Assembly: GCA_044892525.1 (NCBI GenBank)
Contig: CM097885.1
Coordinates: 29,142,001-29,202,000, forward strand
Direction of reading: 5' to 3'
DNA: 60,000 bases
Source: Schmidtea polychroa
Taxonomy: Eukaryota
Made by a program: the position numbers and the translations under genes. Shown in pieces: positions 21,991 through 28,127 of the stretch; positions within the stretch are counted from its first letter, which is position 1, and each line of letters starts with the position of its first letter. Below the pieces are notes generated by a model, which saw only the letters and a list, made by a program, of their open reading frames with translations, was not told the origin of the DNA and did not search any database.

Positions 21991-22779
21991 TTACTTTATC
22001 CTTGTAAAATTTTCTTTAATGGATGTTAAATAATGTTCGTATCTTTCAAATAGTTTTGCTGGAAAATTATTATCCGAAATTATCCGAAAGATGTTGAGTT
22101 GTACAGTCGGTTTAGGGTCATTAATTGCTTTGGCGTTCGCTGACTGAGAGGCAAACAATGATACTTCTAATTCCTCTATTTCTTTACGTCGTTTTTGCGT
22201 CCGTTCGGCGCGAGATGGACGTTTTCTCTTCTTCGGATTGAGTTTGGTCGAATCCTCGGGACGACTTGAAGGAACGAGGTGAGACGGCCCGTGGAGAGTG
22301 GGTTCAGAAGTGGCGTGGCTATTTAATACTCCGTTCAGAATTGGTTCTGCCATTGGAGGAAATTCTGGGCCATGTCCCGCGAAGCTCGATGAAACTGGGG
22401 CGTTCAATTCGTCCACTCGATGACGTAGCGGGAAAACATTTACTCCATCTTTTATCGGGTAATCCCTGACCCGCCTTCTCGACTCCGAATCGGAGTAAAC
22501 TTGATGTAGAGCCTCTGACTGGGCCTTGATGGTCAGTCGCTGACAGCGGCTTTCTCCTAGGAGGCTGTCCCGGCAATGCTCTAGCCTCAGGACTTTCATT
22601 TTCTCCTTCTTCATTTGTGGCGGGGAGAACCATGTATTCTCCAACGCTTCGATGCGTTTCTTTAGAACTTCGATGTGCTCCTGTAATTTCCGGATATCAG
22701 CGTTCTTATCGGCACACGAAAAACACGGTTTCGGGCCACGCTGAGGCAAATTTGGTTCGGAGATGACTAAATTTAACAA
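21991..22779 (-). CDS. Orphan protein (copy A): CxxC, predicted coiled coil, Pro-rich linker, basic NLS-like KKRKRP; true start uncertain
   Basis: Open 262-codon, GC-rich frame. Strong amino-acid similarity to the 27367 ORF ([50 protein letters not shown]) despite many third-position differences. Confidence 0.75.
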   Translation of the reverse strand: MLNLVISEPNLPQRGPKPCFSCADKNADIRKLQEHIEVLKKRIEALENTWFSPPQMKKEKMKVLRLEHCRDSLLGESRCQRLTIKAQSEALHQVYSDSESRRRVRDYPIKDGVNVFPLRHRVDELNAPVSSSFAGHGPEFPPMAEPILNGVLNSHATSEPTLHGPSHLVPSSRPEDSTKLNPKKRKRPSRAERTQKRRKEIEELEVSLFASQSANAKAINDPKPTVQLNIFRIISDNNFPAKLFERYEHYLTSIKENFTRIK

Positions 22780-23074
22780 AATAATTTACCAATCGTAAAT
22801 GAACCTGCATTATTACAACCTCGACTCACTCGTCGTTCACGTCACTCGATCATTTACGAACTCAAATTCATTTTAAACTAAGTACCTTATTCATTTTACC
22901 ATACTCGACTTGGAGGTGTATACTTTATATCGATTTTATTGCGGGTAGGATTTGATCAAAGTTACGGTAAGGTGATTAATTACATCAAAATCATATTTAA
23001 ATCGTAAATTCGATGAGTGATTTAAGAGAAAACAATTCTTTCTACCTATAATAGAAAACTGGAGATTTATAATA

Positions 23075-23302
23075 CACTCATACCTCGCTTTACGGCCTAG
23101 ATACGTTCCAGGAAAGTTGGCCGCAAAGCGAAAAGCCGCATAACGAATCAAATACATTTTGATACAATTCCATATAAATTCAATAGGATTTTTGGCCGTA
23201 TAACGAAACATTTTAGGGCGTAAATCGAAAAAGTGCGTAATTAAAGTAGGCTGTTATAGCGAAAAGCCGTATAAAGAGCAGCCGTATAGCGAGGTATGAG
23301 TG
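23075..23302. mobile_element. Tc1/pogo-type MITE
   Basis: 22-bp TIRs CACTCATACCTCGCTTTACGGC / GCCGTATAGCGAGGTATGAGTG with TA on both sides. Confidence 0.88.
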
Positions 23303-26300: not shown

Positions 26301-27366
26301 AATTTCCCCCGGTAGGATGATAGTAAATCCGAACAGTAAATTGTGTTATGTCATCAGAATTGTATAAGAGTATGAAATATTACCTGAGATGGTAGAACCG
26401 CGTGTAAGAACGGAGGAGTAGATTGTATCATCGCGAAGTAGCATGGCATTGATTTTTCTAGACTGGTGTAGGTAGATAACCACTCAGGAAAAGCATAAAC
26501 CCAGACTAGCCAACCAGACACACCAATTCACATAGTAGAAACAAACAATAATACCCTAGCACACACAAGCAGGCGTCGCTATGACGACGATTACGGCGCG
26601 TTTTGTGAATCATTATATTTTAATTTATCGTGCATTTTTATATAATAATATTTTTTTTTTAATTTTTGCGTTGAACGGGAATTGATATCGCACCAATTAA
26701 TATGAATGACACCGAAAATAGAATTAGAGCTTGTTAAACAGATTTGATAAAACTAGGTTTAGAAAATTAAACTATAAACGAAATGCTAGAGAATTATTAT
26801 AAAAAGTGAACCAATGCAATAAATACCGGCGAAAAATTAAAATTAGGAAGCTGAGATGTGGAATTAATCGTGGTAATTTAATAACTTACGGGTCCCCTTT
26901 TTGACTAGCTTGATTTAGTGCAACGCCAGGGAACTTATGTCGCATCCGATTACCTAGCTAACCTAAAACCCTGAACATTGAACAAAAGTTAGAGCGTTTT
27001 GCAACGAATTTTAAAAAGGGAAAATTAATGTATTAAATCAGCGAGAATGACATAATAATACAAGTTGGTGACGATATAGTTAGAGGCAAACTTTTAACCC
27101 TGAAGATAGACTTAAGGTTGTCACATGCGAATAGGATGATGTGAAAGGTTCCGTTTTCTTTTCCTTCGAACCACAGCTGTTTGAATAAATTAGTTCGAAT
27201 GTTTGAGGTTGAATGGGTCTCGGTAAGGCCACTGGCATATATGCATGATGCTGGGTTTTATGGTTTTGTCTGTATGCGGGACGGACGTAATAGACTTCGC
27301 GTCGTAAGAGTGTCACTGACAATACCGTAATGTTTGCAGTGTGAGTATAAATGTCTTAACTTTTAG

Positions 27367-28127
27367 ATGACTACCCCAACCAAGTCCGGAAGCACTCTTC
27401 GTCCTTGCTTTTCCTGTGCCGATAAAAATGCGGATATCGCACAGCTCCATCTATATATCGGGAAATTTAAAAAGAGGATTGACCTCTACGAAGGAACGTG
27501 GTTCTCCCCGCCACAAATGAAGGAAGAGAGGAGTAAAATCTTGCGACTAGAACATTGTCGCAACAGCCTCCTGGAGGAGAGCCGCTGTCAGAGACTGACG
27601 ATAAAGGCCCAGTCGGAAGCCCTCCACAAGGTGTATACGGAGGCCGAGCAGGCAAAACGAGTACGACAGTTTCCCAGTCAAGACAAAGCCAGTGTTTTTC
27701 CCATTCACCATCAGTTATCCGAGTCGTCAAAGTCAGGCTGCGAAGGCATGGTCCTCATCTGCCACCCATCCCAGCCCCAGTGCTGTCAGGTTACCGACCA
27801 ATGGCAGGTGGCTCTTCTGACCCCATCCTGGCCCCAATTCTTGTCGCGCCCGTCATAGAACCTTCAACAGGACACGACCCGCCATCCCGCAAGAGGAAGC
27901 AACCAACCAGATCAGAAAAAAATCAAAAGCGAAGAAACGCGATGGCAGCCCTCGAAGCGTCGTTGTCTGTGGCGCAATCAACGATCGAGAAAATATCATC
28001 CACGCATTCAATTCCTGCAAAAGAAATCTTCCGAGTAGTTCCGGCCGAGGGGATAAAGTTTATCACAGATCATCGACTACCTGTCGATATTGACGAGATG
28101 CTCGCAGAAGGAGAAGTATTCTCGTAG
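27367..28127 (+). pseudogene. Orphan protein (copy B), single frameshift near 27745
   Basis: ORF 27367-27858 matches copy A up to ...SGCEG. The overlapping frame (to 28127) continues HGPHLPPIPAPVLSG...RKRKQPTRSEKNQKRR...LEASL, matching copy A HGPEFPPMAEPILNG...KKRKRPSRAERTQKRR...LEVSL. Confidence 0.8.

Follow-up and report, generated by a model that had tools for sequence, protein, structure and literature searches.

We analysed a 60,000-nucleotide stretch of the Schmidtea polychroa genome (assembly GCA_044892525.1, contig CM097885.1, forward-strand positions 29,142,001 to 29,202,000; hereafter the window, with positions counted from its first letter) that holds three diverged copies, A, B and C, of a gene encoding an orphan protein. 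These copies are almost certainly broken long terminal repeat (LTR) remnants of Burro-type giant gypsy retrotransposons with the anatomy described below. The gene lies within the LTR and is under strong purifying selection. Our preferred reading, a tentative one to which we give somewhat less than an even chance, is that it encodes a spliced, dimeric nuclear transactivator of the element's own transcription.

Three broken LTRs in the window carry the gene

An initial annotation of the window had named three gene copies with common motifs, and tblastn recovered all of them where it had placed them (A versus B, E = 3.5e-51; A versus C, E = 3.5e-8). The gene frame of copy A occupies 21991-22785 (minus strand) and that of copy B 27367-28127 (plus strand), the latter with a single frameshift near 27750, while copy C is a fragment at 15583-15705 (plus strand) that has the first 40 codons in common with A and B and ends near 15700. 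None of the three is intact. Copy A had been described as open, and its frame is open, but the gene has lost its 3' end and its start codon, which is kept in 71 of 81 distinct copies. Copy A matches its closest relative, locus L002, as far as 22077, which leaves ~28 codons at the end of the frame as unrelated DNA. The LTR pieces and genes are as follows.

22077..22785, minus strand: LTR gene copy A (group II), lacking both its start codon and its 3' end; frame continuing to 21991 through unrelated DNA
22077..23074, minus strand: LTR A, 3'-most remaining piece; 89% to L002
23075..23302, unstranded: 228-bp miniature inverted-repeat transposable element (MITE) inside LTR A; terminal inverted repeats, TA flanks
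23303..24176, minus strand: LTR A, second piece; 85% to L002, where it is contiguous with the third piece
28661..29330, minus strand: LTR A, third piece; 90% to L002 over 28661-28960, weaker matches up to 29327
44666..45443, minus strand: LTR A, 5' end; TGTTGGG at 45443, CCAAT/TATA; separated from the remainder by a 15-kb palindromic insertion
24177..28660, plus strand: copy B, complete solo LTR of group I, 4,484 bp; TGTTG...CAACA; nested in LTR A
27367..28127, plus strand: LTR gene copy B; CxxC, two helices, Pro-rich linker, basic helix and acidic tail; one frameshift
13514..15700, plus strand: copy C, an LTR of another lineage again, truncated at its 3' end; TGTTGGG at 13514, CCAAT/TATA; gene fragment at 15583-15699

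LTR A is interrupted by the 15-kb palindrome, LTR B and the 228-bp MITE. The palindrome (29400-44600) is a foldback-like insertion with minisatellite arrays, and its inner arms reach up to 919 nt at 100% complementarity. LTR B aligns over its full length at 73% with an LTR in L087, and at 73-75% with the LTRs of the whole elements described below. L002 is uninterrupted across the LTR B insertion site and provides the empty site; judged against it, the target duplication of LTR B is imperfect (4 of 5 bp), and young elements have a 4-bp one. LTR C matches L055 at 73% over 14263-15696. By the marks of a solo LTR, B has both termini and the duplication, and A and C have the 5' terminus only. Three LTRs of three lineages lie within 13 kb, which therefore implies nesting and a high genomic density.

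Copy C lies within an intron of WDR19, as the initial annotation had proposed. The downstream exons were identified by Pfam at 12566-12700 and lower coordinates, and the upstream exons that flank copy C are inferred: we take the first exons to be ~21035-21100 and 21146-21239, with a start near 21292, from a reading by eye against the human N-terminus.

The carrier is a Burro-type giant gypsy element

A search of the same genome for the gene returned 6,660 first-look candidates (a figure that is not a copy number), in keeping with the high copy number anticipated by the initial annotation, and 150 of these were scored. Among the 150 scored matches, 46 formed 23 same-strand pairs spaced 25.9-26.7 kb apart, compared with ~0.01 pairs expected by chance. 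Four of the five paired regions examined were whole elements of 30.5-30.6 kb with LTRs of 4.18-4.20 kb, and the fifth proved to be a solo LTR within a duplicated stretch. The paired LTRs of the whole elements were 99.9-100% identical, with TGTTG...CAACA termini and 4-bp target duplications. A solo LTR of the gene-bearing family lies at L039-L042, in a tandem duplication with frames that by eye look Maverick/Polinton-like (ATPase, integrase and capsid-like).

The gene, of 254 codons, lies at LTR positions 2889-3653 and is present in both LTRs of an element. The interior holds a single polyprotein frame of 4,811-4,817 codons, whose order in the one element scanned with Pfam was gag, CCHC, viral fusion glycoprotein, protease, reverse transcriptase, RNase H, integrase and ankyrin. 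The Env-like fusion protein lies in frame between Gag and protease (PF24664, E = 4.9e-72, residues 2054-2393), Ank_2 lies in the polyprotein (E = 2.8e-18) and MATH_2 in its own separate frame (E = 2.7e-25); the frames outside the polyprotein include RING and RING-TRAF-MATH ones. BIR and BCL2 motifs gave zero Pfam matches at E <= 0.01 in this element, in a search by Pfam only. The primer site lies 7 nt past the LTR and is complementary to the 3' end of a host tRNA-Pro, and one exact LTR-primer junction pattern occurred 637 times. Genes for the primer tRNA-Pro(tgg) lie in tandem arrays with a 475-bp period at L102-L104 (130.9 Mb), and a T-arm pattern gave 2,212 matches genome-wide.

Dugesiid planarians harbour giant gypsy-like LTR retrotransposons known as Burro/GYPSM1 (Jurka 2007; Grohme 2018; both as summarised in PMC6431247), and the anatomy published there includes an Env between Gag and protease. 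We assigned the carrier to the Burro/GYPSM1 type by its anatomy, which fits the published one and would also point to a dugesiid planarian as the likely host. Like Burro/GYPSM1, the element exceeds 30 kb, has a polyprotein of ~4,800 residues with Env between Gag and protease, ankyrin and MATH/TRAF domains and accessory frames, and is present in high copy number. Unlike it, the element has MATH/TRAF in a separate downstream frame and, in the one element scanned, no BIR/BCL2 match in Pfam; the passages on Burro/GYPSM1 in PMC6431247 mention no gene within the LTR. The repeat family that the initial annotation had called unrecognised thus has a carrier of published anatomy, and its suggestion of accessory-gene-bearing giant LTRs or an endogenous virus proved apt, with the gene sitting in both LTRs of an element that carries gag, env and pol.

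Copy A is tied to a full element through the termini, promoter and gene that it has in common with the others, no group II (A-type) LTR having been seen next to a primer site. One LTR of group III was found leading into a Burro-type interior.

Purifying selection acts strongly on the LTR gene

Over 99 codons, copies A and B differ at 26 first, 20 second and 60 third positions, which agrees with the heavy synonymous divergence and purifying selection put forward in the initial annotation. A codon model of 34 natural copies, picked for long open frames from the 81 distinct ones (five cut at the break), put omega at 0.043 over the 99 N-terminal codons and at 0.137 across the gene, values that also contain neutral decay since insertion. 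The NG86 medians, limited to pairs with 0.1 < dS < 2.5 (other pairs being saturated or too close), were 0.019 for the N-terminal part (63 usable of 561 pairs), 0.40 for the linker (209 pairs) and 0.21 for the basic region plus tail (84 pairs). The position of the gene is also kept: in most copies with the LTR end located it lies ~1,220-1,290 nt from the LTR 3' end, across lineages that are 35-55% identical.

In group I, third codon positions are saturated while amino-acid identity is 87-99%, so a protein is required. This tells against a frame held open by RNA or DNA constraint without a protein, and the presence of copies genome-wide within LTRs tells against a host gene family and against the local duplication that the initial annotation had held up as the contrary outcome. 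The host-gene reading draws on database relatives that are fused to assorted host proteins; the fusion partners differ each time, and the fusions look like gene-prediction chimeras. We regard all three of these explanations as very improbable.

These relatives came from a search of 1.84 billion representatives, which returned seven at 31-40% identity, and a follow-up that added two. Extra sequence was present in eight of the nine; in six it includes a host Pfam domain, never the same one twice, and this suggests gene-prediction chimeras over LTR copies in another genome. They retain the kink and long helix of the protein described below, and several have an arginine-rich motif and the acidic tail.

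Other searches gave little. Pfam returned weak coiled-coil matches only, the word-indexed protein search yielded 0 of 266 candidates for copy A and 0 of 7,896 for a 26-row alignment, the PDB sequence search gave a best E of 0.73, the viral fold search gave none at E <= 0.001, and an Atlas search with the relative P0004 reached at best 0.78, below its lead bar. A basic leucine zipper (bZIP) was considered and dropped, its spacing being unlike the consensus and Pfam giving no match.

A dimeric coiled coil, a basic helix and an acidic tail are predicted for the protein

AlphaFold2 modelled the protein (predicted template modelling score, pTM, 0.32; mean predicted local distance difference test, pLDDT, 65.5) with helices at residues 15-42, 49-100, 183-214 and 243-248 and a disordered linker. 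The helices over residues 15-100 meet at a conserved W-x-x-P kink, the 183-214 helix is basic and the 243-248 helix is short and acidic. Residues 8-116, modelled as two copies together with zinc, scored 0.60, compared with 0.23 for the best control; the dimer runs agreed in at least 96% of contacts with a pLDDT of at least 81, and formed an in-register parallel coiled coil with C14 and C17 at the interface. In calibration, 21 of 30 solved pairs attained the dimer mark and none of 23 single chains did; for animal pairs the figure was 7 of 16. The modelling supports a predicted N-terminal homodimer.

Toward the C-terminus, the basic segment, which the pattern located in 23 of 26 rows, had a net charge there of +6 to +10, and an acidic-hydrophobic tail motif (VDIDEML, FDLEELL-like) was found in 22 of 26 rows, in lineages that are only ~35% identical. 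Classical nuclear export signal patterns occurred in the last 60 residues of at most 4 of 26 rows per pattern.

A long coiled coil followed by a basic helix, as predicted here, could also belong to a structural or packaging protein of the particle, a matrix-like coiled coil with a basic RNA-binding segment, and in the passages of PMC10309623 the Gag of Cer1 carries an N-terminal coiled coil instead of MA. We consider this quite improbable: the protein has a gene to itself, upstream of the primer site and preceded by a putative acceptor, the element already has a Gag with zinc knuckles, and the acidic tail would be left unaccounted for.

Promoter-like and splice-like signals precede the gene

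Three candidate signals were located in LTR B.

24680..24760, plus strand: predicted promoter of LTR B, with a CCAAT box in reverse orientation and a TATA 16 nt on; first donor-like site at +71; function inferred
25493..25499, plus strand: putative conserved splice-donor-like site GG/GTGAG; second donor-like site, group I
27340..27366, plus strand: putative splice-acceptor-like site immediately ahead of the start codon

In A, B, C and 9 of the 16 LTRs fetched, CCAAT and TATA-like motifs occur ~360-520 nt into the LTR. Since the gene is downstream of this predicted promoter, it would lie in the R or U5 region. Of the 11 group I LTRs examined, 10 have the second donor-like site, 1.5-1.95 kb upstream of the CxxC motif. 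In 67 of the 71 ATG-bearing copies the start codon is preceded by a YAG at 0-9 nt (background 26%), and the acceptor-to-ATG distances are not all in one phase, which makes a non-coding leader likely. The conserved YAG points to a putative splice acceptor behind a non-coding leader. A tblastx comparison of the LTR leaders found no second frame common to them across groups. Among 15 of 22 joints listed, from four contig sets of which three are guessed to be RNA, there was no GT-AG joint, a result that counts neither for nor against splicing.

At L031/L033, the layout recurs in all five of the element's other accessory frames that were examined, with a YAG 1-6 nt ahead of the ATG. The pattern suggests that accessory frames may be expressed with one acceptor per gene, by cis- or trans-splicing.

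The LTR gene product may transactivate the element

Under the transactivator reading, a promoter ~500 nt into the LTR would put the gene in R/U5, and its mRNA would form by splicing of a non-coding leader onto the acceptor, in cis or by spliced-leader (SL) trans-splicing. The N-terminal 100 residues would dimerise as a parallel coiled coil, with a zinc site shared by the two chains as its cap; nuclear import and nucleic-acid binding would fall to the basic helix, and recruitment of host transcription machinery to the acidic-hydrophobic tail. We prefer a transactivator because the acidic-hydrophobic tail is kept across lineages and an export signal is not. The wider proposal, that a regulator of either kind (transactivator or Rev-like exporter) is encoded within transcribed R/U5, between the promoter and the primer site, is put forward with considerable doubt.

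An exporter of the Rev/Rex/CERV kind, made from fully spliced RNA, would multimerise through its arginine-rich helix on the unspliced ~27-kb genomic RNA and export it. The acceptor-like sites ahead of all five other accessory frames favour this explanation: with acceptors throughout the genomic RNA, that RNA must escape retention. Gypsy elements offer a precedent in CERV of Cer1 (passages of PMC10309623), and the distant relatives have RRRPNRN(R/S)RRR-type motifs, one of them with a match to Pfam REV (E 0.0013, 19.1 bits) below the cut-off of 22. Against it stand the copies of the element's own genome, in which REV matched 0 of 26 at E <= 0.1, and the poor conservation of export signal patterns reported above. 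We rate an exporter as possible, at well below an even chance and not far behind a transactivator.

The product could also be directed at the host, as an anti-silencing factor acting on the chromatin, PIWI-interacting RNA or apoptosis machinery, and not be a direct regulator of element RNA. Such a role would suit the RING, TRAF-MATH and ankyrin modules that the element also carries, and the published passages describe Burro1 as repressed by PIWI (PMC8532177) and, in a secondary account, as protecting stem cells via a BIR/RING region (PMC13465017). The N-terminal omega fits an arms-race interface poorly, however, and a host-domain match is absent; we consider a host-directed factor unlikely.

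Several points weigh against the transactivator itself. Its function is read from motif likeness, including a presumed likeness of the tail to acidic activation domains; the searches of Pfam, PDB, viral folds and Atlas gave no match that points to a function. The arginine-rich motif of the distant relatives would fit RNA binding at least as well. The initial annotation's orphan CxxC protein is an orphan in the libraries searched, but the distant relatives with an N-terminus present have no CxxC, which therefore does not define the wider family. The monomer model has low global confidence (pTM as above), and long amphipathic helices may readily pair in such models. Transcription and splicing of the gene are predictions from sequence signals, and its placement in R or U5 follows from the predicted promoter. 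The CCAAT/TATA pattern was unmatched in all seven group III LTRs fetched, the first donor-like site is missing from 4 of 11 CCAAT-box LTRs, and the second was not found outside group I among the LTRs examined.

Short-LTR relatives lack the gene

We sampled 20 primer-adjacent LTRs from the first 100 listed. Ten carry the gene, nine of them within 1.55 kb and one further upstream behind an insertion, and the other ten belong to a short family without the gene, 1.65-2.0 kb long in the three measured. This abundant short-LTR family (L107, L109, L121 and L125-L130) has the primer site and LTR ends in common with the gene-bearing elements. The sole short-LTR interior examined has gag and no pol, and is a deletion derivative in a tandem array of ~13.5-kb units. 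Because a family without the gene has spread, the gene appears dispensable in cis, as judged with this one interior, and its product likely acts in trans.

Neighbouring genes and frames

WDR19/IFT144 (start near 21292, minus strand) and a small GTPase-like gene at ~47960-48630 (plus strand), which appears to resemble IFT22/RABL5, are divergent, with 27 kb of nested elements between them. A WDR19 intron holds a 443-codon frame at 5533-7578 (minus strand) that looks like a DDE transposase, has no Pfam match and is 99% identical to DNA in L024. At 45441-46484, a 227-codon minus-strand frame lies between two 90-bp direct repeats (45462 and 46395); its middle appears to resemble a proteasome alpha-subunit fragment and is possibly a captured host fragment. 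An intronless 451-codon frame at 54777-56129 (plus strand), possibly a host gene with a putative ENT-like N-terminal domain, is followed by a 306-bp tandem repeat at 56725-58287.

Implications

Planarian genomes are dominated by Burro elements, one of which is reported, in a secondary account, to support stem cells and regeneration (passages of PMC13465017). If our reading is correct, a conserved LTR regulator would be a direct handle on the way in which a 30-kb element with multiple accessory frames controls its expression. If such a regulator is encoded within transcribed R/U5, every solo LTR, usually deemed inert, would be a self-contained gene cassette that can stay protein-coding, and hundreds to thousands of them could supply the regulator to autonomous and pol-less elements. 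The strong-stop DNA of reverse transcription would be ~3.6 kb, and a gypsy lineage would have reached complex-retrovirus-style regulation with an unusual layout. The gene has also seemingly been joined to host genes by gene predictors, which contaminates annotations.

The element type is already known. What appears undescribed in the accessible literature (abstracts and passages, among them PMC8532177, PMC11410931 and PMC13465017) is the presence in its LTR of a conserved gene that is under selection and sits behind the predicted promoter. No description of a gene in Burro LTRs was found in the abstracts and passages searched; the figures and supplements of Grohme 2018 and Lee 2026, and Fig. 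2A of PMC6431247, may show the frame.

Comparison with known regulators and LTR genes

Foamy virus Tas has an acidic C-terminal activation region, and the genes for Tas, Tat and Rev/Rex/Rem lie in the interior or overlap U3. In the product of the LTR gene, the conserved basic helix and acidic-hydrophobic tail may be counterparts of the nuclear-targeting segment and activation region of transactivators such as Tas, Tax and Tat. In sequence it resembles the exporters Rev, Rex and CERV in its arginine-rich or basic segment; unlike Rev and Rex, it has no conserved leucine-rich nuclear export signal in its last 60 residues. With the regulators of complex retroviruses generally (Tas, Tat, Rev/Rex/Rem) it would share small size, a spliced mRNA, as predicted here, and basic or arginine-rich segments (for Rem, passages of 10.1101/2023.11.02.565355; for Rev, of PMC10309623). 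It differs from all of these in giving no sequence or fold match, and its carrier is not a member of the Retroviridae.

CERV of the Caenorhabditis elegans element Cer1 is encoded by a spliced mRNA and required for genomic RNA export, according to passages of PMC10309623. Like CERV as described there, the present protein is an orphan accessory protein of a gypsy-type element, and it is predicted to come from a spliced mRNA and to be nuclear, multimeric and regulatory.

As a coding frame within an LTR, present twice per provirus and kept in solo LTRs, the gene resembles sag of mouse mammary tumour virus and nef of human immunodeficiency virus. Those frames lie in or overlap U3, upstream of the promoter. 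The present gene, unlike them, lies downstream of its predicted promoter, and a solo LTR could therefore transcribe its own gene.

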